A stretch of 64,000 bases of DNA from an uncultured Gemmatimonadales bacterium. Its GTDB lineage: Bacteria > Gemmatimonadota > Gemmatimonadetes > Longimicrobiales > RSA9. Both the position numbers and the translations under genes were made by a program. The stretch covers positions 1,056,001 through 1,120,000 of the forward strand of contig OY970192.1 of the NCBI GenBank assembly GCA_963708135.1, given 5' to 3'. Of this stretch, positions 51,629 to 61,829 are shown one piece after another (the first letter of the stretch is position 1; every line of letters begins with the position of its first letter). The notes under the pieces were generated by a model that did not search any database, was not told the origin of the DNA, and was given only the letters and a program-made list of their open reading frames with translations.

Positions 51629-52471
51629 ATGGGCGTGATCCTCGGCTCGGTCGCGATCCTGGGCGGCGTGGGGGTGATCTTCGGGATCCTCATCGCGCTC
51701 GCCAACAAGAAGCTGCGCGTGTGGGAGGACCCGCGCGTGGACGGCGTGGCCGATCTGCTGCCCAACAACAACTGCGGTGCCTGCGGCTTCGCGGGCTGCC
51801 GCGCGTTCGCGGAGGCGGTGGTCCGCGGCGAGACGGCGCCGGCGCAGTGCACGGTCATGAACGACGACCAGCGCGGCGACGTGGCCGCCTACCTGGGCGT
51901 CGATGCGGGCCAGGCGACGAAGCGGGTCGCGCGGCTGCTGTGCGCGGGCGGCGACGACGTCGCCATCCGGAAGGCGGAGTACCGCGGCATCGAGAGCTGC
52001 GCCGCCGCGGTGGCGGTGACGGGCGGCGGCAAGGGGTGCGCCTGGGGGTGCGTCGGCTATGCCGACTGCGCCGTGGCGTGCGACTTCGACGCCATCCTCA
52101 TGAGCGACACCGGGCTGCCGGTGGTGGACGTCGAGAAGTGCACCGCCTGCGGCGACTGCGTCGATGCATGCCCGCTGGACCTCTTCACCATCCTGCCGCT
52201 GGACGCCCACCTGCTGGTGCAGTGCAGGAGCCTGCTGGAGGGCGAGGCGGCCACGGACGTGTGCAGCGTCGCGTGCAACGCGTGCGGCCGCTGCGCCGCG
52301 GACGCGCCCGGGCTGATCACGATGCGGCGCGGCCTGGCCGTGATCGACTACGACCGCATCGAGCTGCAGAGCAGAAAGGCCATAGGGCGCTGCCCGACCG
52401 GCGCCATCGCGTGGGTCGAGGGCGCGCAATTCACCATGCAGCTTCCCGCGTCAGGGAGCGGAGTGTCATGA
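51629..52471 (+). CDS. rnfB: Rnf complex subunit B
   Basis: N-terminal TM, LPNNNCGACGFAGC, several CxxCxxCxxxC motifs. Confidence 0.92.
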   Translation: MGVILGSVAILGGVGVIFGILIALANKKLRVWEDPRVDGVADLLPNNNCGACGFAGCRAFAEAVVRGETAPAQCTVMNDDQRGDVAAYLGVDAGQATKRVARLLCAGGDDVAIRKAEYRGIESCAAAVAVTGGGKGCAWGCVGYADCAVACDFDAILMSDTGLPVVDVEKCTACGDCVDACPLDLFTILPLDAHLLVQCRSLLEGEAATDVCSVACNACGRCAADAPGLITMRRGLAVIDYDRIELQSRKAIGRCPTGAIAWVEGAQFTMQLPASGSGVS

Positions 52472-55400
52472 GCAGCCGCAAGCAGGCGGAGCCGGAGCGC
52501 CCCGGACCGAAGTACCCGGGGCAGCCGGAGGCGATGGACGGCAGCGCGGCCGTCGTCGAGATGGAGACCGCGGCCAGCGAGGCGGCGGGCGCCTACCCGA
52601 TCACACCCTCGACACAGATGGGCGAGGGCTGGGCGCTGGCCGTGGCGGGCGGCAAGACCAACGTGAACGGCCGCCGGCTGCTCTTCTTCGAGCCGGAGGG
52701 CGAGCACGCGGCGGCGGCGGTCACGGCCGGGATGAGCATGGTCGGGCTGCGGGCCACCAACTTCTCGAGCGGGCAGGGCATCGCCTACATGCACGAGTCG
52801 CTCTACGCGGCCGTCGGCAAGCGCCTGACCTACGTGCTGAACGTGGCCGCGCGCGCCATGACCAAGCACGCGCTCAACGTGCACGCCGGCCACGACGACT
52901 ACCACGCCGTGGACGACACCGGCTTCTTCCAGCTGTTCGCCAAGGACGTGCAGGAGGCGGCCGACCTGAACCTGATCGCGCACCGCGTGGCCGAGCTGGC
53001 GCTGAACCCGGGGCTCGTGGCGCAGGACGGCTTCCTCACCAGCCACGTGATCGAGTCGATCCGGCTGCCCGAGCGCGCGCTGATCAAGGAGTACCTGGGC
53101 GACCCCGCGGACATGGTGGAGTCCCCGACGCCCGCGCAGCGCCTGGTGTTCGGCGAGACGCGCCGGCGCATCCCGGAGATGTTCGATCTGGACTACCCGT
53201 CCATGATCGGCGTCGTGCAGAACCAGGACGCCTACGCGCAGGGCGTGGCCGCCCAGCGGCCCTTCTACTTCGACCACGTGGCCGAGCTCACCGACCGCGC
53301 CATGCGCGAGTACGCCGAGCTCACCGGCCGCACCTACGCCCGCGCCACCGGCTACCGCATGCAGGACGCCGAGTGGGTCATCTGCGGCCAGGGCTCCGTG
53401 GTGCCCAACGCCGAGGCCGTGGCCGACTGGCTGCGCGAGAACCGCGGCCTCAGGGTCGGCGTGCTCAACCTCACCATGTTCCGCCCGTTCCCGGCCGACC
53501 TGGTCACGCACCTGCTGCGTGGCAAGAAGGGCGTCACCGTCCTCGAGCGCGTGGACCAGCCGCTGGCCGTCGATCCGCCGCTGCTGCGCGAGATCCGCGC
53601 GGCCATGACGCAAGCGCTCGAGAACGGCCGCGCCGTCGCCGCGAACGGTAACCGCGCGGCGGGGCGAGCCACCACGAGCGGGCATTCCGGCATGGCGTTC
53701 GGATGGGGACGGGGCCGCGCCGAAGCGGCCACGAACGGCGACGCCGCCGCCCCACCGATGCCGTACCCGAAGCTCGCCGCCGCCCTTCCCGACGAGTTGC
53801 CGGACTTCTTCTCCGGCGGCTTCGGCTTCGGCAGCCGCGACCTGCAGCCAGGCGACATCGTTGCGGCCGTGGAGAACATGGTGCCGCAGGCGCAAGCGCA
53901 AGGGCAAGCGCAAGCGCAAGCGCACGCGCAAGCGCACGCGCGAGCGCACGCCCAAAACCAAAACCAAAACCAAAACCAAAACCCGGAGCGGCGCGGGGCC
54001 GGGCGGAGGCAGCGCCAGTTCTACCTCGGGATCGACTTCATCCGCAAGGGCACGAAGCTGCCCAAGCTGCAGCTGTGGCAGGAGCAGCTGCTGGAGGGCT
54101 ACCCGCACCTGGCGGAGCTGGCGCTCGAGTCGGCAGGCGACCTCAACCTGCACCCGGAGGGCTCCGTCTCGCTGCGCATCCACTCGGTGGGCGGCTGGGG
54201 CGCGATCACGACCGGGAAGAACCTGGCGCTCACGGCGTACGAGCTGGCCGGGCTCAACATCAAGGCCAACCCGAAGTACGGCTCGGAAAAGAAGGGACAG
54301 CCGACCACCTTCTACGCCACGCTCTCGCACCAGTCCCTCAGGATCAACGCGGAGCTGAAGCACGTCGATGTGGTACTGAGCCCGGACCCGAACGTGTTCC
54401 GCCACTCCAACCCGCTGGCGGGGCTGGCCGAGGGCGGCGTGTTCGTGATCCAGAGCGACCAGACGCCGGAGCAGGTGTGGGCGTCACTGCCGGCCACGGC
54501 GCAGGTGGACATCATCGAGAAGAAGCTGGCCGTCTACGCGCTGGACGGCTTCAGCATCGCGGGGGAGGAGGCCTCGGATCCCGAGCTCCGCTACCGCATG
54601 CAGGGCGCCGCCTTCATGGGCGCCTTCTTCGCCGCCTCGCCGCTGGCGGCGCGCGAGGGGCTGGACGAGGCCCGGCTGTTCGAGGGGATCGAGGCGCAGC
54701 TCGAGAAAAAGTTCGGCAAGCTGGGCAAGCGCGTGGTGGACGACAACCTGCGCGTGATCCGGCGCGGCTACGAGGAGATGCGGAAGGTGCCGGTCGGGGC
54801 GGTGAGCGACGAGGTGTCCTCCGCGCTGGCCACGGCGAACGTGCCGGCGCTCATGGACGTGATCGGCGCGGCCGAGGGGCCGGGCAACCCGGGCCGCTTC
54901 TGGGAGCAGGTCTGCTCGATCTACGCCAGCGGCGGCGACGGCATCGCGGACCCGTTCGCGGCGATCAGCGCGGTTCCGGCGGCCAGCAGCACGTTCCGCG
55001 ACATGACCAACATCCGCTTCGAGGTGCCCGAGTTCATCGCCTCGAAGTGCACGGGCTGCGCGCAGTGCTGGACGCAGTGCCCCGACGCGGCGATCCCGGG
55101 GCTGGTCAACACGCCGGAGGAGATCCTGGACGCGGCGATCCGGACGGCGCAGAACGGCCGCTCCTTCGACCGGTTGCGCCAGGTCTCGAAGCACATCGCG
55201 AAGGAAGCGAACAAGGTGATGCAGGGCGTGCCCTTCACCACCTTCGGCGACGTGCTCTCCGCCGCCTACCAGAACGTGGCCGGGAAGCTCGGCTGGGAGG
55301 CCGACCGGCGCGCCGAGCTGGACGAGGAGTTCGCCGCCGTGTTCCCGCGCATCGCCGAGCTGCCGCTGGCGAAGACGGCGCCGTTCTTCGACGTGCCGGA

Positions 55401-57816
55401 GTCGAAGCAGAAGGGCAGCGGCGGCGTCCTCTCCATCACGATCAACCCCGAGGCGTGCAAGGGCTGCAACATCTGCGTGGACGTCTGCCCCGAGAACGCG
55501 CTCATCACGGTCAGGCAGGACGAGGACATCGTCGCGAAGCTGCGCCGCAACTGGGAGCTGTGGCAGAACCTGCCCGACACGGACGAGCGCTACGTGAACG
55601 TCTCGAACCTCGAGGAGGGGATCGGCGTCCTGTCCTCGGTGCTCCTGCACAAGGACGCCTACCGCAGCATGGTGGGCGGCGACGGCGCCTGCATGGGCTG
55701 TGGCGAGAAGACCACGGTGCACCTGGTGGTCTCCGCCATCGAGGCGCTCATGCAGCCGCGCGTGAAGAGGCACGTGGAGAAGCTCGATGCGCTGATTGCC
55801 ACGCTGGACGCGAAGGGCCGCGCGCTGCTCTCGGCGGACGCGGACCTGGATCTCGCGGCGGCGGCGGCCGGCACGGTGGACGTGCCCGTGCCCGCGGAGA
55901 AGCGAGCCGAGCTACGCCGCCTGACGGACGCGATCCACGCGCTGCGGGACCTGCGCTGGCGCTACGTCGAGGGGCCGGGTGGGAAGGGGAGGGCCGCGCT
56001 CGGGATCAGCAACAGCACGGGCTGCTCCTCGGTGTGGGCGAGCACGTATCCGTTCAACCCGTACCCGTTTCCGTGGGTGAACCACCTGTTCCAGGACTCG
56101 CCCTCGATCGCCATCGGCATCTTCGAGGGGCACATGCGCAAGATGGCGGACGGCCTCGCCGCGGTGCGCCGCGCCGAGCTGCTCGCCGGGGACGCCTACG
56201 ACGCGGAGGTCCACGAGGCAGAGCTGCAGGCCTTCGACTGGCGCGCCTTCACCGACGAGGAGTTCAACCTCTGTCCGCCGATCCTGGCCGTGGGCGGCGA
56301 TGGCGCGATGCTCGACATCGGCTTCCAGAACCTGTCCCGCCTGCTCGCCTCCGGGAAGCCGGTGCGCGTGCTCGTGCTCGACACGCAGGTCTACTCCAAC
56401 ACGGGGGGACAGGCGTGCACCAGCGGCTTCACCGGCCAGGTGGCCGACATGGCCGCCTGGGGCAAGGTCCAGCACGGCAAGGAGGAGATCCGCAAGGAGC
56501 TCGCCCTCATCGCCATCGCGCACCGCGGCGCCTTCGTGCACCAGACCTCGCAGGCCAACCCGACGCACCTGCTGGCCGGCGTGATCAAGGGGCTGCACTC
56601 GCGCCGCCCCGCGGTCTTCAACATCTATACGCCCTGCCCGGTCGAGCACGGGCTGCCCGATGAGTGGGCGCCGCACGCGGCGCGCCTCGCGCTCGAGAGC
56701 CGCGCGTTCCCGCTGCTGACCTACGACCCCGATGCGGGCCGGGCCGTGGCCGACTGCCTCTCGCTCGAGGGCAACCCCTCGATCGACGAGACCTGGCCGA
56801 CCTACGAGCTGAGCTACGTCGATGCGGACGGCGCCGACAAGACGCTCGAGCTGCCCGTCACCATCGCGGACTGGGCCGCCACCGAGGGGCGCTTCAAGAA
56901 GCACTTCCGCAAGGTGGCCGAGGCCGACTGGAACGAGGACATGGTGCCGTTCCACGAGTTCGTCGCCCTCTCGCCGGAGGAGCGGGAAGGGAAGAGCAGC
57001 TACGTCCTCACCCTGGCTCCGGACCGGCGCCTCGAGCGGCTGTCCGTCTCCCGCGAGATGGTCACGCTGGCCGAGGACCGGCTGCTCTTCTGGGCCCAGC
57101 TCAAGGAGCTCGCCGGGCTCGAGGTGCCCGAGGTCGTGCGCGACCGGCTCACCTCCGAGATGGAGGACGAGTACGAGGGCAGGCTGGCCGCGCTCCGCGG
57201 CGAGTACGAGGCGCGCCTCGCGGAGCTCAAGGCGACGTATCCGCGCGTCATCGCGCGCCGCCTGGCCGAGGGCCTCGTGCGCGGCACGGCCGGCGGGCGC
57301 CAGACCGTGGCCGACCTGCTCAGGACCGCCGAGGAGACGCCCGGGCTCGAGCCGATCCGGTTCGACCCCGCGGCCGAGGCCGCGCTCGGCGGCGGCGCGG
57401 GCGCGGGCTCGACGTCGCCGGTGCCGGCGGCGGCCGCCACTGCCGCGGCGGCGGACGGCTCCGCTTCGGGCCCCGTCCCGGCCGCGTCGGGCGGCGCTGC
57501 GACTGCGGCTGCGGCGGTCTCCGCCTCGGGGGGTGGGGTGGCGGTGGCGGAGGAGGATGAGGGGCTCGCGATCGAGCCCTACATCGAGTCCGCCCGCTGC
57601 ACGACGTGCAACGAGTGCACGAACCTGAACAAGAAGATGTTCGCGTACAACGAGGAAAAGCAGGCGTACATCAGGGACCCGCGCGCCGGCAGCTTCGCGC
57701 AGCTGGTGCAGGCGGCGGAGCGGTGCCCGGCGGGGATCATCCACCCCGGCACGCCGCTCAACCCGAAGGAGAAGGGCCTCGAGAAGTGGATCGAGCGCGC
57801 CATCCCGTTCAACTGA
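52468..57816 (+). CDS. Large single-chain pyruvate:ferredoxin oxidoreductase-like protein (1782 aa) with a C-terminal ferredoxin domain
   Basis: YPITPS, CTGCAQC, CKGCNIC, GACMGCGE, GGDG, YSNTGGQ, terminal CTTCNEC..ERCP. Confidence 0.9.
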   Translation: MSSRKQAEPERPGPKYPGQPEAMDGSAAVVEMETAASEAAGAYPITPSTQMGEGWALAVAGGKTNVNGRRLLFFEPEGEHAAAAVTAGMSMVGLRATNFSSGQGIAYMHESLYAAVGKRLTYVLNVAARAMTKHALNVHAGHDDYHAVDDTGFFQLFAKDVQEAADLNLIAHRVAELALNPGLVAQDGFLTSHVIESIRLPERALIKEYLGDPADMVESPTPAQRLVFGETRRRIPEMFDLDYPSMIGVVQNQDAYAQGVAAQRPFYFDHVAELTDRAMREYAELTGRTYARATGYRMQDAEWVICGQGSVVPNAEAVADWLRENRGLRVGVLNLTMFRPFPADLVTHLLRGKKGVTVLERVDQPLAVDPPLLREIRAAMTQALENGRAVAANGNRAAGRATTSGHSGMAFGWGRGRAEAATNGDAAAPPMPYPKLAAALPDELPDFFSGGFGFGSRDLQPGDIVAAVENMVPQAQAQGQAQAQAHAQAHARAHAQNQNQNQNQNPERRGAGRRQRQFYLGIDFIRKGTKLPKLQLWQEQLLEGYPHLAELALESAGDLNLHPEGSVSLRIHSVGGWGAITTGKNLALTAYELAGLNIKANPKYGSEKKGQPTTFYATLSHQSLRINAELKHVDVVLSPDPNVFRHSNPLAGLAEGGVFVIQSDQTPEQVWASLPATAQVDIIEKKLAVYALDGFSIAGEEASDPELRYRMQGAAFMGAFFAASPLAAREGLDEARLFEGIEAQLEKKFGKLGKRVVDDNLRVIRRGYEEMRKVPVGAVSDEVSSALATANVPALMDVIGAAEGPGNPGRFWEQVCSIYASGGDGIADPFAAISAVPAASSTFRDMTNIRFEVPEFIASKCTGCAQCWTQCPDAAIPGLVNTPEEILDAAIRTAQNGRSFDRLRQVSKHIAKEANKVMQGVPFTTFGDVLSAAYQNVAGKLGWEADRRAELDEEFAAVFPRIAELPLAKTAPFFDVPESKQKGSGGVLSITINPEACKGCNICVDVCPENALITVRQDEDIVAKLRRNWELWQNLPDTDERYVNVSNLEEGIGVLSSVLLHKDAYRSMVGGDGACMGCGEKTTVHLVVSAIEALMQPRVKRHVEKLDALIATLDAKGRALLSADADLDLAAAAAGTVDVPVPAEKRAELRRLTDAIHALRDLRWRYVEGPGGKGRAALGISNSTGCSSVWASTYPFNPYPFPWVNHLFQDSPSIAIGIFEGHMRKMADGLAAVRRAELLAGDAYDAEVHEAELQAFDWRAFTDEEFNLCPPILAVGGDGAMLDIGFQNLSRLLASGKPVRVLVLDTQVYSNTGGQACTSGFTGQVADMAAWGKVQHGKEEIRKELALIAIAHRGAFVHQTSQANPTHLLAGVIKGLHSRRPAVFNIYTPCPVEHGLPDEWAPHAARLALESRAFPLLTYDPDAGRAVADCLSLEGNPSIDETWPTYELSYVDADGADKTLELPVTIADWAATEGRFKKHFRKVAEADWNEDMVPFHEFVALSPEEREGKSSYVLTLAPDRRLERLSVSREMVTLAEDRLLFWAQLKELAGLEVPEVVRDRLTSEMEDEYEGRLAALRGEYEARLAELKATYPRVIARRLAEGLVRGTAGGRQTVADLLRTAEETPGLEPIRFDPAAEAALGGGAGAGSTSPVPAAAATAAAADGSASGPVPAASGGAATAAAAVSASGGGVAVAEEDEGLAIEPYIESARCTTCNECTNLNKKMFAYNEEKQAYIRDPRAGSFAQLVQAAERCPAGIIHPGTPLNPKEKGLEKWIERAIPFN
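53887..53982 (+). repeat. In-frame hexamer microsatellites (GCGCAA)n and (CAAAAC)n
   Basis: Encode QAQAQGQAQAQAHAQAHARAHAQNQNQNQNQN. Confidence 0.85.
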
Positions 57817-57826
57817 GCGGAGAGAG

Positions 57827-59284
57827 ATGAAGCTGACGTTCCGCCACGGGGTTCACCCCCCGGAATCGAAGGAGCTGACGGAGCACGTGCCGTTGCGGCG
57901 CCTGCCGTTCGCGGCGGAGCTCGTGCTCCCGCTCCGGCAGCACGCGGGAAAGCCGGCCGTCCCGCTCGTGAAGGTCGGGGACCACGTGCAGCGGGGCGAC
58001 CGGATCGCCGAGGCCGACGGCTTCGTCTCCTCGCCCGTGCACGCCTCGGCGGCCGGCGTGGTGAAGTCGATCGGCTGGTGGCCGCACCCGGACGGGACCA
58101 TGGCGGAGGCGATCCGGATCGCGGTGGACCGCTACTCGCCCCACATCCCGCGGCCGCGCATGGTGCCGCACTGGGAGGGGCTCTCGGCCGCGCAGGTGGT
58201 GAAGGCCGTGCAGGACGCGGGCGTGGTCGGCCTCGGCGGCGCCGCCTTCCCGACGCACGTCAAGCTCTCGCCGCCGAAGGACGCGAAGATCCACACCCTG
58301 ATCGTGAACGGCGCCGAGTGCGAGCCGTACCTGACCACGGACCACCGGACCATGGTCGAGTACCCGGAGCGCGTGCACTTCGGCGTGCGCATCATGATGA
58401 AGGCGCTCGGCGTCGCGCGAGCCGTAATCGGCGTCGAGATGAACAAGCCGGACGCCATCGAGCGGCTGCGCGCCACCCGGCCCGGGGACCTCGACGTCAC
58501 GATCCTGCCGCTCACGGTGAAATATCCGCAGGGCGCCGAGAAGATGCTGATCGAGGTGGTCACCGGGAAGCGGGTGCCGTCCGGCAGGCTGCCGCTGCAC
58601 GTGGGCGTGGTGGTGCAGAACGTCGGCTCGATCGCCACCATCGCGGAGGTCTTCGAGACCGGGCTGCCGCTGGTCGAGCGGATCGTCACCATATCGGGCC
58701 ATGGCGTGCGCCGCCCCTCCAATCTGATCGTGCCCGTCGGCACGAAGATCCGCGATGCGCTCGAGTTCTGCGGCGGGCTCAGGGAGGACGCGAGCGAGAT
58801 CGTGTTCGGCGGCCCGATGATGGGCACCTCGCAGCCGGACCTCGATACGCCGATCATCAAGGGCACCACCGGCGTGATCGTGCTCAGGCACGCCGACACG
58901 CCGCGCCGCGAGACGCTGCCCTGCATCCGCTGCGGCCGCTGCCTCGACGCCTGCCCCGTCTTCCTGAACCCCTCGCAGCTCGGGCTGCTCGCGCAGGCCG
59001 GCCGCTACGAGGACATGGAGGCGCTGCACCTGGCCGACTGCATGCTGTGCGGCTCCTGCTCCTACGTCTGCCCGTCGAGCATCCCGCTCAGCCAGATGTT
59101 CTCGCTGGGCAGGACGGCGCTGCGGAAGCTGAAGGCGGCGGAAGCCGCGAAGGCGAAGGCGGAGGCCGCGGCCCGCGGGGCGGCGGAGGGCGGCGTCGCC
59201 GCCAGCGGGCCCGGCGGCGCGGCGGCCGGTGCATCGGCCCCGGCCGGCGGCGCGGCCGCGCGGAAGGAGGCGGTGCCCGCATGA
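57827..59284 (+). CDS. rnfC: Rnf complex subunit C
   Basis: GVHP, QHAG, GLGGAAFPT, NGAECEPYLT, KYPQGAEK, GGPMMG, CIRCGRC, CMLCGSC. Confidence 0.95.
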   Translation: MKLTFRHGVHPPESKELTEHVPLRRLPFAAELVLPLRQHAGKPAVPLVKVGDHVQRGDRIAEADGFVSSPVHASAAGVVKSIGWWPHPDGTMAEAIRIAVDRYSPHIPRPRMVPHWEGLSAAQVVKAVQDAGVVGLGGAAFPTHVKLSPPKDAKIHTLIVNGAECEPYLTTDHRTMVEYPERVHFGVRIMMKALGVARAVIGVEMNKPDAIERLRATRPGDLDVTILPLTVKYPQGAEKMLIEVVTGKRVPSGRLPLHVGVVVQNVGSIATIAEVFETGLPLVERIVTISGHGVRRPSNLIVPVGTKIRDALEFCGGLREDASEIVFGGPMMGTSQPDLDTPIIKGTTGVIVLRHADTPRRETLPCIRCGRCLDACPVFLNPSQLGLLAQAGRYEDMEALHLADCMLCGSCSYVCPSSIPLSQMFSLGRTALRKLKAAEAAKAKAEAAARGAAEGGVAASGPGGAAAGASAPAGGAAARKEAVPA

Positions 59285-59310
59285 GACACCCTGTGTCAAC
59301 CCCCCTGTGT

Positions 59311-60558
59311 TCAAGCAGCCGCCGCGGTGGGTTCCGCGGGGGTGAAGAAGGGGATAGCCCGTCCGTGTCGGGAGGGGTCGTAGGTGGACCGATTGTGCCA
59401 GCAGCGCCACAGCACGCGGACCCAGGCTCGGGCGAGGATTCGGATTGCGTGCGGGTGATCGCAGCCGCGGGCACGGGCGCACTTGTAGACGGCGGCGGCC
59501 CAGGGGTGGGCATGGCGGGAGTTGTCCGCCCAGGTGGTGAGGGCTTGTCGCAGGCGCTTGTTGCAGGCGAAGCGGCAGGCGACGCCGCGATGCTTGCCGG
59601 AGCTGTGCGTAACGGGGGCGACGCCGGCTTCGGCGGCGAGCTGGGCGTCGGTGGCGAAGCGGAGCCGGTCGTCGCCGAGCTCGGCGAGAATCTGGGCGGC
59701 ATTGATGGTGCCGGTGCGGGGGAAGGACTTCAGGATCTCACCGTCGGGATGCTGCGCGAGGTGAGCGGCGATGAGCCCGTCGAGCTCGCGGATCTGAGCC
59801 ACGAGAGGGCGGAGGACGGCGACCAGGGAACGGACGAGCTGACCTTTGGTCTCGCTCTCGAGCTCGGCGGCCTGCCCTGCGGGGGCGGAGCGGAGCCGCT
59901 CGAGGAGCTGATCGACCGGCCGGCGGCCGCAGTAGGCAGTGCGCTTGAGGAATCGTTCGAGGCGCTTGGGCCCGAGGCGGGCGGCGCTCTCCGGGGTGGG
60001 GTAGGCGTCCAGGAAATCGAGGGCGATCGGGCTATCGACATCGGCGAAAATGGCGGCAGCGCCGGCCCAGAAGCTGTCGAGCAGGCTGCGGAGCTGATTG
60101 GCGAGCTGGACGCGGGTCGCGACCAGGTCATCGCGGGTGCGAACGGCGGCGCGAAGCGCCTTGGTGCGATCGGAGGGGACCCGGAGCGGCCGGAATCGAT
60201 GCCCATCGGTACGCAGGACGTCGGCGAGGATGTAGGCATCACCGGGATCGCTCTTCCCCGGAGCCGCGGCGTAGCGGGGCCGGGTGGCCTTGAGGGCGTT
60301 CGGGTGGATCGGAACGACCGGGAAGCCGGCCTCGACCAACGTATCCACCAGAAGTCCGGACGGCCGCTCGATGGCGATGGGCAGCTGCGCCGGAGAGCTG
60401 ACGCGACGCAGGCGCCGGATCAGCTCACTCAGCCCACCGGCCGTGTGAGGGATGGTGAACGCGTCAACGAGGGCGCCGCTCAGATCGAGCACACAGACGT
60501 CATGCTTGTCGCTGGCCCAGTCAATTCCGACGAGGTAGCTTGGATCCAGTCCTTCCAC
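59311..60558 (-). CDS. IS110 DEDD recombinase
   Basis: GIDW, AIE, KSDPGDA (DEDD); C-terminal AGVAPVTHSSG with the catalytic Ser. Confidence 0.95.
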   Translation of the reverse strand: MEGLDPSYLVGIDWASDKHDVCVLDLSGALVDAFTIPHTAGGLSELIRRLRRVSSPAQLPIAIERPSGLLVDTLVEAGFPVVPIHPNALKATRPRYAAAPGKSDPGDAYILADVLRTDGHRFRPLRVPSDRTKALRAAVRTRDDLVATRVQLANQLRSLLDSFWAGAAAIFADVDSPIALDFLDAYPTPESAARLGPKRLERFLKRTAYCGRRPVDQLLERLRSAPAGQAAELESETKGQLVRSLVAVLRPLVAQIRELDGLIAAHLAQHPDGEILKSFPRTGTINAAQILAELGDDRLRFATDAQLAAEAGVAPVTHSSGKHRGVACRFACNKRLRQALTTWADNSRHAHPWAAAVYKCARARGCDHPHAIRILARAWVRVLWRCWHNRSTYDPSRHGRAIPFFTPAEPTAAAA

Positions 60559-60589
60559 GCCTCACCTCCGAGCAGAGATTCACTCCCTC

Positions 60590-60765
60590 GCTCCGGCGTT
60601 GGAAGGTCTCACCGATCGCTCACTGAAAGGCGCTCTCGGCTTCAGGTGCCGTGGCGCTACACCCTGTGGTCGGTTGGGGCCTTCCACGCCGGGCAGGGGA
60701 GCGGGTCTCATGCGGGCCGTCGAGCGGCAAGCGACGCTGGCTCTCCCTACCCGGACGCCGAAGCA
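60590..60765 (-). ncRNA. Putative bridge RNA of the IS110 element (ends approximate)
   Basis: Two stem-enclosed internal loops whose guides match the target flanks and the donor junction (see findings). Confidence 0.8.
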
Positions 60766-60815
60766 CTTCTCTTGAGCGGCGCGAATCTACGCCCCGCTGA
60801 GGGTAAGGTGCACCA

Positions 60816-61829
60816 GTGAGCGAGCTCGACGCGGGCCGCCTCCAGATCGCGGCCTCGCCCCACATCCAGGCGGCCGACAGCACCGAGCGGATCATGTGGA
60901 CGGTGGTGGCCACGCTCGTGCCGATCGTGGGCGCCTCCTTCTGGTTCTTCGGCCTGGGCGCGCTGCTCGTCATCGCCAGCGCGACGCTCGGCGCCATGGC
61001 CACCGAGCGCGCGTTCGGCCGGCCGCGCGCGCTCCGCGACGGCTCCGCCGCCATCACCGGGCTGCTCCTCGGGCTCACGCTGCCGCCGGGATTCCCGCTG
61101 TGGATGGCGGCGATCGGCGGCGCCTTCGCGATCGGGCTGGGCAAGCTGATCTTCGGCGGGCTGGGGCAGAACGTCTTCAATCCCGCGCTGCTCGGGCGCG
61201 CGTTCCTGCAGGCGGCGTTCCCCACGGCCATCACCACCTGGCCCACGGTCGGGCAGGGATGGACCACGCTCTACCCGTCCAACTTCGCGTTCCCCTTCGT
61301 GCAGGCGGCGCCCGACGCGGTCACCGCCGCCACGCCGCTCGGGCTCATGAAGTTCGAGCACCACATGACGGACGTGCTGCCCATGATCACCGGCCATACC
61401 GGCGGCTCGCTCGGCGAGACGGCGGGTGCCCTGATTCTCATATGCGGCGCCTACCTGGCCTGGAAGCGCTACCTCGACTGGCGCATCCCGACGAGCATCA
61501 TCCTCACCGTGGCCGGGCTGAGCGCGCTGCTGCACCTGTTCGGCGGCGAGCGCTTCCCGACCGCCGGCTTCATGCTCTTCTCCGGCGGGCTCATGCTCGG
61601 CGCCGTCTACATGGCCACCGACATGGTCACCTCGCCCACCACGCCGAAGGGGGCCTGGATCTTCGGCTTCGGCATCGGCGCGCTCGTCGTGCTGATCCGG
61701 ATCTGGGGCGGGCTGCCGGAGGGCGTCATGTACGCGATCCTGCTCATGAACGCGCTGGTGCCGTTCCTGAACCGCTGGACGCAGCCGCGCGTGTTCGGTA
61801 CGCCGGGTCGGAAGGAGGCCGCAGCGTGA
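60816..61829 (+). CDS. rnfD: Rnf complex subunit D
   Basis: SPH, FGGLGQNVFNPA, AATPL, GGSLGET, MATD, EGVMYAIL; polytopic membrane protein. Confidence 0.95.
   Translation: MSELDAGRLQIAASPHIQAADSTERIMWTVVATLVPIVGASFWFFGLGALLVIASATLGAMATERAFGRPRALRDGSAAITGLLLGLTLPPGFPLWMAAIGGAFAIGLGKLIFGGLGQNVFNPALLGRAFLQAAFPTAITTWPTVGQGWTTLYPSNFAFPFVQAAPDAVTAATPLGLMKFEHHMTDVLPMITGHTGGSLGETAGALILICGAYLAWKRYLDWRIPTSIILTVAGLSALLHLFGGERFPTAGFMLFSGGLMLGAVYMATDMVTSPTTPKGAWIFGFGIGALVVLIRIWGGLPEGVMYAILLMNALVPFLNRWTQPRVFGTPGRKEAAA

Follow-up and report, generated by a model that had tools for sequence, protein, structure and literature searches.

Does the non-coding stretch at positions 60590 to 60765 of the DNA shown here encode a guide RNA for the recombinase gene beside it? 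The window, by which we mean the whole stretch of 64,000 nucleotides (nt) that was analysed, comes from an uncultured Gemmatimonadales bacterium (contig OY970192.1), and the flagged stretch lies within a 262-nt gap between a recombinase open reading frame (ORF) at 59311-60558 and the gene rnfD. A sequence-only reading had proposed that this gap holds an IS110-type bridge RNA whose target and donor guides can be read from the letters. We arrive at a similar answer: the minus strand of 59286-60820 is, with a probability that we put at about 0.88, an intact, probably active insertion sequence of the IS110 subgroup, whose 262-nt left end (LE) encodes a bridge RNA. A fold that covaries among related elements, together with four guides that covary with the DNA they match, therefore argues for a genuine bridge-RNA recombinase with a CT core. 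The element is an already known kind of RNA-guided recombinase and involves no new principle; it adds one well-mapped, distant bridge-RNA orthologue, with a longer right target guide and naturally reprogrammed guides, which may serve enzyme mining.

Element, copies and recombinase

The genome to which the window belongs, one contig of 5.45 Mb with 72% G+C, carries four copies of 59286-60820 with 0-1 nt differences, and their flanks diverge immediately outside. Four copies of identical bounds therefore delimit an element of 1535 bp, made up of the LE, the recombinase gene and a right end (RE) of 25 nt. A long non-coding LE ahead of the gene, together with a short RE, is the layout of the IS110 subgroup, and long terminal inverted repeats are absent. 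Given copies this similar, the element looks active. Its parts and the adjoining target DNA are:

59286-60820, minus strand: whole IS110-family element, 1535 bp; the four copies in the genome share exactly these bounds
60559-60820, minus strand: LE, 262 nt, without coding on this strand, carrying the putative bridge-RNA gene; aligned with 64 related LEs
59311-60558, minus strand: recombinase gene, 415 amino acids, GTG start; identified by Pfam domains and a family profile
59286-59310, minus strand: RE, 25 nt, holding the left donor arm (59286-59295) and TTGACA (59294-59299)
60821-60827, minus strand: left target flank, GAGCTCG in element orientation; with the core it fits 5 of the 9 positions of the left target guide
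59279-59285, minus strand: right target, core CT (59284-59285) plus CATGC, the reverse complement of GC-ATG-AG

The insertion point falls exactly on the overlap of the rnfC stop and the rnfD start, with RnfC and RnfD identified by Pfam as the neighbours; GC-ATG-AG in the right target is the original rnfD start codon plus the rnfC stop. Since CTCA is present both at the 5′ end of the element (60817-60820) and in the flank past its 3′ end (59282-59285), the crossover point is ambiguous within 4 nt.

Pfam recognizes DEDD_Tnp_IS110 (PF01548, 2.4e-37) and Transposase_20 (PF02371, 2e-17) in the recombinase; a RuvC-like DEDD domain and a Tnp domain with the catalytic Ser-Gly, the two marks of the IS110 family, are both present. 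Across 21 sequences, D13, E64, D104, D107 and S320-G321 are invariant. A family-profile alignment places these residues on D13, E62, D104, D107 and S243 of the IS621 chain, the numbering of which is offset by 2 residues from the native D11, E60, D102, D105 and S241-G242. When a profile of the 21 family members was compared with solved structures, it retrieved IS621 (8wt6, 2.7e-18) and ISCro4 (9t56, 1.4e-17). The earlier description of a divergent, intact recombinase is borne out by both IS110 domains, the full set of catalytic residues and the fact that IS621 was found solely through the family profile. Three further IS110-family ORFs (L010-L012), 24-26% identical to this recombinase, lie within 30 kb elsewhere in the genome (C1:810861-839445).

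Fold and guides of the predicted bridge RNA

A scan of genome contigs returned 141 relatives, of which the best 80, with 54-89% amino-acid identity, were kept; 79 of these 80 loci are tabulated, L016, which has no 5′ part, being excluded. Their genomes are labelled Gemmatimonadota, Actinomycetota, Alphaproteobacteria, Acidobacteriota, Chloroflexota, Planctomycetota, Cyanobacteria, Myxococcota, Verrucomicrobiota and others. Relatives this similar (L013-L092) in about ten labelled phyla therefore point to a wide horizontal spread of the clade. The 76 loci with at least 200 nt upstream of the gene were aligned with the window by MAFFT, using no guide information. For the fold, the window was aligned with the 64 distinct LEs whose start could be placed (65 LEs in all); LE starts were sought over 600 nt, 340 nt having been too short for the longer LEs.

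Folded by itself, the window sequence modestly beats its shuffles (z = -2.56; 2 of 200 fold as well). RNAalifold, applied to the 65 LEs, recovered the basal stem of the target-binding loop and two apical stems, and the basal stems of the donor-binding loop were added by hand before pairs were counted. Standard pairs occupy 91.0% of 2671 cells, as compared to 37.9-43.6% when partners are slid by 1-3 columns, and 33 of the 42 pairs have changed on both sides; none of 500 shuffles reached the observed values. The predicted parts of the RNA are:

60775-60798, minus strand: predicted 5′ stem-loop (AGCGG-G-GCG ... CGC-G-CCGCT), from a single-sequence minimum-free-energy fold only
60689-60754, minus strand: target-binding loop module, with basal stem 60741-60754/60689-60701, internal loop and apical hairpin 60716-60728; from RNAalifold and pair counts
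60601-60685, minus strand: donor-binding loop module, with basal stems 60680-60685/60601-60606 and 60670-60674/60611-60615
60654-60657/60630-60633, minus strand: apical stem of the donor loop, within the donor module

Within the target loop, changes on both sides affect 12 of 12 basal and 3 of 4 apical pairs; the donor-loop helices (helices 5-8) are 82-100% paired, again with changes on both sides. One helix (331-334 with 364-367) is badly preserved, at 60.5%, and the complementarity of helix 1, which arises by construction, was not counted as evidence. The 5′ stem-loop region varies in length and sequence among relatives. The two stem-enclosed loops proposed from the sequence thus hold up: the named stems GGAAGG/CCTTCC, ACCGA/TCGGT and GCCG/CGGC are present in the window, and the loops covary across the 65 LEs. 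A covariance model built from homologous ends, which had been named beforehand as a check, comprised both loops (154 positions, 31 pairs) and matched the genome exactly four times, at the four copies, with 150.7 bits each; the three distant IS110 paralogues in the same genome gave no match to this two-loop model. Across relatives, it is the target loop that varies, the donor loop being conserved; published descriptions of bridge RNAs likewise report a 5′ stem-loop, then a first loop that varies and a second that is conserved (PMC11208160, PMC11208158).

Four guides and the right donor arm can be assigned to this fold:

60730-60738, minus strand: left target guide (LTG), RNA AGCGUCGCU; in the sense of the left-target top strand, ending in the core CU
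60707-60713, minus strand: right target guide (RTG), RNA GCAUGAG; complementary to top strand CT-CATGC
60659-60668, minus strand: left donor guide (LDG), RNA CACAGGGUGU; same letters as the final 10 nt of the element top strand
60619-60625, minus strand: right donor guide (RDG), RNA CAGUGAG; complementary to the first 7 nt of the element, including the core
60814-60820, minus strand: right donor arm (RD), CT core (60819-60820) plus CACTG; pairs with the RDG

After the 5′ hairpin, the order stem, guide, stem-loop, guide thus occurs twice, target loop first and donor loop second, with the core in LTG, RTG and RDG, which agrees with the IS621-like bispecific guide order and CT core assumed at the outset. 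The RNA would extend over about LE 23-220, beginning with the 5′ hairpin and continuing with the two stem/internal-loop/hairpin modules. By analogy with IS621, recombinase dimers on each loop would unite the circular RE-LE junction with the target, and Ser320 and the DEDD site would exchange strands adjacent to the core. We infer the transcription of the RNA, its binding by the protein and the chemistry of this reaction.

The matches on which the sequence-only reading was built are present in the sequence: plus-strand 60707-60717 is the exact reverse complement of the target flank 59275-59285 (GCCCGCATGAG), 60659-60668 is identical to the element end 59286-59295 (ACACCCTGTG), and CTCACTG at 60619-60625 is the reverse complement of 60814-60820. 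The partial match claimed between 60730-60738 (AGCGACGCT) and the other flank, 60819-60826 (AGCGAGCT), is there and is weak, comprising 5 contiguous bases (AGCGA), or 8 with one bulge. We discarded the bulged alignment of the LTG to the left flank in the window (AGC-[G]-TCGCT, 8/8), which is absent at the other three sites and possibly due to chance. In the 64-kb window, the 10-mer common to donor loop and RE occurs at only 2 places, against 0.05 expected and a count of 2 in none of 100 shuffles; for the 11-mer, also confined to 2 places, 0.18 are expected and 3 of 100 shuffles reach 2. By itself, the 7-mer CTCACTG is no commoner than chance would have it (2 found, 6.9 expected), so its support as the RDG comes from covariation in relatives and not from the window count.

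That covariation is visible in the guide-free MAFFT alignment. RD and RDG show full 7/7 complementarity in 60 of the 73 rows with letters in both segments, through six pair types (RDG written as DNA):

RD CTCACTG with RDG CAGTGAG: 29 rows
RD CTCATTG with RDG CAATGAG: 16 rows
RD CTCATCA with RDG TGATGAG: 8 rows
RD ATTACTG with RDG CAGTAAT: 4 rows
RD CTCATTC with RDG GAATGAG: 2 rows
RD GTCACTA with RDG TAGTGAC: 1 row

The 13 failures arose because MAFFT misaligned longer LEs or short contigs, and a wider search placed most of them.

Guides and insertion sites covary as well, as the sequence-only reading would have it. The LTG and the left target (LT) share 248 matches versus 168 ± 8.3 after permutation (64 sites, 7 positions before the core), or 182 versus 117 ± 7.3 with one site per distinct guide (n = 46). 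For the RTG and the right target (RT) the figures are 333 versus 260 ± 5.5 (54 unique sites) and, with one site per distinct guide (n = 25), 149 versus 104 ± 4.7; in each of these four comparisons, 0 of 20000 permutations reached the observed value. By position, LT -6 to -1 match at 0.44-0.97 of sites (0.27-0.80 expected), with just 0.44-0.55 at -6 to -3, and LT -7 shows no covariation with the guide across the 64 sites; covariation backs the LTG over the core and the 6 nt preceding it. RT +1 to +5 match at 0.78-0.98 of sites (0.42-0.95 expected), with 0.96-0.98 at +1 to +3, and RT +6 to +9 match exactly at expectation, the RNA being invariant there. The covarying positions therefore describe a programmable target of about 6 + 2 + 5 = 13 bp. 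A right target guide of 11 nt had been claimed; about 7 nt of it (60707-60713) stand, while the remaining GCCC, up to 60717, is invariant and does not track the flank. We therefore rejected an extension of the RTG beyond 7 nt, and the extra four RTG-side matches at the window site are most simply put down to chance.

For the LDG and the left donor arm (LD), right ends were re-located by a guide-independent anchor, which gave 201 matches versus 172 ± 4.8 (0 of 20000 permutations). Of 69 right ends, the anchor-based search misplaced about 6, which stayed in the test and count against it. Covariation resides at positions -8, -7, -4 and -3, and position -1 is often mismatched; LD position 7 of IS621 is likewise reported as mismatched in the published descriptions (PMC11208160, PMC11208158).

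The core itself changes jointly in LTG, RTG and RDG among relatives, from CT to AT or GT, with the T invariant. Relatives with variant RTGs sit at fitting flanks (CTCTTAT, CTGCTAG, CTCCCCC, CTCCTCC, CTCAACG and CTCAAGC).

Two arrangements among the relatives stand apart. In an Actinomycetota group (L085, L088, L089), the two junction cores of one element differ: AT stands at the LE junction and GT at the RE junction, and pairing of the RTG with the latter would involve a G-U wobble. Two other loci have the beginning of a second, incomplete LE immediately upstream of the full element, 110 nt of it in L079 (L079:1117-1226) and 20 nt in L035 (L035:1207-1226). The L079 junction falls within the RTG-coding DNA of the copy itself (..GACGGCCCG/CT, the slash marking the junction), and of the two flanks it is the outer, GGCGGTCG/CT, that is closer to the LTG; the arrangement may be a self-targeted half-site event.

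Target choice and competing explanations

The guides predict GCGTCG-CT-CATGC as the cognate target, which occurs in the genome at 1 perfect, 32 one-mismatch and 418 two-mismatch sites. The four occupied sites, in element orientation and with slashes at the junctions, read:

Site 1 (window): GAGCTCG/CTCA...GGGTGT/CTCATGCGGGC
Site 2: GTGCGCG/.../CTCATGGCTCT
Site 3: TGCCGCG/.../CTCATGCCGCC
Site 4: CATCGTG/.../CTCATGGGCCT

GCTCATG (G-CT-CATG) is shared by all four and occurs 1453 times in the genome. Since this is all they share, the right arm and the core dominate targeting. In IS621, the core and one arm suffice for such ‘half-match’ insertion according to a 2026 preprint, and targeting in the present genome resembles that behaviour. 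Reading the four sites as half-matches to the RD arm was rejected, as the RTG fits them at 6-7 of 7 positions and the RDG target CTCACTG at 4-5 of 7. The claim that the element has its own specificity survives only in part: its target-loop guides recur unchanged in at least four relatives (L020, L024, L037, L042), and most of the clade shares the right-target arm CTCATG.

As to expression, RNA-library contigs of 151-243 nt from 4 libraries in 4 studies lie over 60527-60764 and are 90-97% alike; the donor-loop stem has its foot at 60601/60602, where two of the contigs end. They give a weak hint of bridge-RNA transcription; element stretches without contig cover in runs X1, X2 and X4 are uninformative. 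A -35-like TTGACA sits in the RE, 8 nt before its end, and is conserved in most relatives.

Several observations count against a bridge-RNA element at this locus. Measured against the predicted target, the four occupied sites carry 3, 5, 2 and 6 mismatches, nearly all in the left arm, and they agree with the LTG at 3, 2, 4 and 1 of its six non-core positions. One two-mismatch site is taken; the perfect site (C1, minus-strand index 5398630) and all 32 one-mismatch sites are empty. The LDG stops short of the core, the RNA having AG in the place of the core CT. A scan of Rfam 15 with E up to 10 returned five unrelated matches (E 2.5-5.7), far below gathering score, and phmmer found 0 matches for the single recombinase protein in the PDB, so that the family profile was needed. 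The RNA-library contigs stem from relatives, because they are only 90-97% alike; they may be DNA carry-over, and the runs were selected for holding the bridge-RNA stretch. As for a promoter rebuilt across the RE-LE junction of the circle, a feature of the IS110 subgroup, TTGACA is present, but the -10-like hexamer found 18 nt further on, CACCTT, is weak and fits at A2 and T6 only; a consensus scan of the integrated element for promoters and terminators found none. Finally, the covariation and permutation figures are not probabilities, because the shared ancestry of the relatives inflates them.

The mismatched sites raise the question of how much the LTG contributes. The RNA could be real and its specificity nevertheless close to a fixed word of 7-8 bp, G-CT-CATG, with the LTG minor, insertion proceeding at half-matches and selection picking the survivors. 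We hold this to be only just short of an even chance. It would account for a word found at 4 of 4 sites whose LT arms fit at 1-4 of 6 positions, and for the gap across the family between RT +1 to +3 (0.96-0.98) and LT -6 to -3 (0.44-0.55); the half-match insertion described for IS621 in the 2026 preprint, as far as that account goes, provides a precedent. A dispensable left guide sits less well with LT -6 to -1 matching their cognate guides well over permutation, or with nine relatives (L030, L043, L069, L071, L072, L073, L074, L077 and L082) in which 8 of 9 LTG positions match. Moreover, no stretch of the RNA varies more among relatives than the LTG, as expected of a guide in use.

A more radical proposal dispenses with the guide RNA, taking the matches for subterminal repeats in DNA, or for a leader or attenuator of the recombinase mRNA, that the protein reads. 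LDG and RDG are indeed a direct and an inverted repeat of the termini at the DNA level, and the bridge RNA of this host strain is known here from sequence alone. Internal repeats, however, cannot explain why loop 1 tracks host flanks that differ between elements, nor why Watson-Crick complementarity is kept through six RD/RDG types while the protein remains homologous; the stems covary as RNA helices, and the homologous LE RNA is required for IS621 and ISEc21 in the published experiments so far as described (PMC11208160, PMC11187229). We regard this proposal as very improbable. That the copies are relics of an immobile element, their guide matches frozen history, is unlikely too, if less so. 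Just 4 copies, many better-matching targets left empty and an integrated copy in which the promoter scan found nothing would suit a relic; copies that differ by 0-1 nt over 1535 bp, an intact ORF with all catalytic residues, and a fold and guides that are likewise intact do not. An intact bridge-RNA element thus remains our preferred explanation.

Antisense frame and relation to known systems

On the host-gene strand the target reads GC-ATG-AG/C, and in the window the rnfD ATG overlaps the rnfC TGA. Three of the four sites in the genome look like gene starts, with a coding GC pattern in frame downstream and none upstream, compared with 160 of 1457 CATGAGC words; at that rate, at least 3 of 4 would arise with a probability of about 0.005 (hand arithmetic). 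The same GC-pattern heuristic, using 30 upstream codons for relatives instead of the 60 used for the own genome, scored 21 of 29 classifiable sites in relatives as gene-start-like (L017-L084). Pfam searches with the ORFs behind two other insertion sites left the true start ambiguous: one encodes an amidase in which a twin-arginine-like stretch follows after about 40 residues and the domain begins at residue 178, and the other has a weak V4R match (0.0015), below cut-off. Two further features lie on the strand opposite the recombinase:

59281-60819, plus strand: antisense frame of 512 codons, from the displaced ATG of the host (59281) to TGA 60817-60819; part of ORF 58078-60819
60805-60818, plus strand: candidate new rnfD start supplied by the LE terminus, with Shine-Dalgarno-like AAGGTG (60805-60810), 5-nt spacer and GTG (60816-60818)

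The frame crosses the whole element, including the bridge-RNA gene, and its terminal TGA overlaps the regenerated GTG. Among 62 distinct relatives, the LE terminus reads (A/G)TGAG on the host-gene strand in 58, which therefore restores a host start codon, and nACC(T/C)(T/C) is conserved at LE 11-16. In 42 of the 62 (loci L014-L091), no stop interrupts the antisense frame before the terminal TGA; 7 end 3 nt earlier, in TGATGAG, 3 end 12 nt before the end, 1 has no stop and 9 have internal stops. The other two frames contain 2-20 stops each, and none of the 62 elements has one or fewer there. Openness over the recombinase ORF was discarded as evidence: in the own genome, 1066 of 1788 long coding-like ORFs (60%) likewise contain no TTA, CTA or TCA codons over 415 codons. 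Because such openness is commonplace, we place the signal in the non-coding ends. Element length is 2 mod 3 in 54 of 62, despite ranging from 1457 to 1655; the RE is 1 mod 3 in 60 of 62, five distinct short lengths (10, 16, 25, 28, 37) all fitting; and LE plus ORF is 1 mod 3 in 56 of 62 elements, or 29 of 33 distinct lengths. If only the non-coding LE is considered, 56 of 62 are open in the right phase, versus 23 and 4 in the other two. Pfam assigned no family to the 512-codon antisense product.

We tentatively propose, at somewhat less than even odds, that the RTG arm is locked on start-codon ATG-AG and that on the opposite strand the whole element is preserved as an open ‘pass-through’ cistron. 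With the RTG of the clade fixed on host ATG-AG, the element would land in one orientation, directly behind a host start codon. Translation would begin at the displaced host ATG, run for about 500 codons through the element and stop at the TGA overlapping the regenerated (A/G)TG; rnfD would remain translationally coupled within the rnf operon, making the insertion nearly non-polar. Alternatively, the antisense frame might serve to make a host-driven Hed-like product or, as an antisense brake, to restrain the recombinase. Should the pass-through proposal be true, the LE would be dual-coded, one strand specifying a structured guide RNA and the other a reading frame, and a reading-frame constraint would overlie the bridge-RNA gene. 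RNA-guided target choice would be tied to translation start sites, and the tolerance of an insertion in the middle of the rnf operon would be explained. It would also give a testable function to the element-spanning antisense ORF known from IS900 since 1997; that ORF, hed, reportedly goes back to Doran in that year. A limited search, which is no proof of novelty, found no relevant literature linking the IS110 bridge RNA with an antisense frame, a start codon or translational coupling.

Elsewhere in the window, the very long ORF 51721-57816 (plus strand), upstream of rnfC, has a low-complexity run (AQAQGQAQAQAHAQAH...QNQNQNQNQN) in its translation.

The closest well-described system is IS621 of E. 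coli, with its bridge RNA and recombinase (Durrant 2024, PMC11208160; Hiraizumi 2024, PMC11208158). As far as those descriptions go, the two elements agree in having a noncoding RNA in a long LE with a short RE, a 5′ hairpin followed by two stem/guide/hairpin/guide modules with the target loop first, 5′ guides that pair with the bottom strand and 3′ guides that pair with the top strand, a CT core in which T is the conserved base, and a variable target loop beside a conserved donor loop. They are also alike in their DEDD and Ser-Gly catalytic residues. In the same descriptions, the RTG of IS621 has 4 nt compared with about 7 nt here, its LDG pairs with the first core base whereas ours ends before the core, and, unlike in IS621, the RDG of the present element pairs contiguously. 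The protein is distant, matching IS621 through the family profile only (2.7e-18; none with the single sequence). IS621 targets repeat sequences; here, in contrast, the target is a start-codon word, and the LE is also open for translation on the opposite strand.

ISCro4 (9t56) is the second solved IS110-family recombinase matched by the profile (1.4e-17), a comparison by title and score alone. The seekRNA of ISEc21, an IS110-type element, is described as 74 nt long and carrying target matches (Siddiquee 2024, PMC11187229). In ISEc21, as here, the upstream non-coding region gives a guide RNA in which the match to the bottom strand lies 5′ of that to the top strand; unlike in that description, which is the basis of this comparison, target and donor loops are both mapped in the present element. 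IS900 of Mycobacterium avium subsp. paratuberculosis, again of the IS110 family, is described as having a target motif with CATG (CATGNNNNNNTCTCCTT) and, opposite the transposase strand, the hed ORF, which spans the element without a ribosome-binding site or start codon of its own (PMC8141618). By that description, the present element resembles the hed arrangement in its start codon within the target and its element-spanning opposite-strand ORF, again with neither a start nor a ribosome-binding site of its own. It differs from what is described for IS900 in that crossover takes place just after host ATGAG, not beside a CCTT box, and in that its antisense frame ends at a TGA overlapping the start codon that the LE terminus regenerates.

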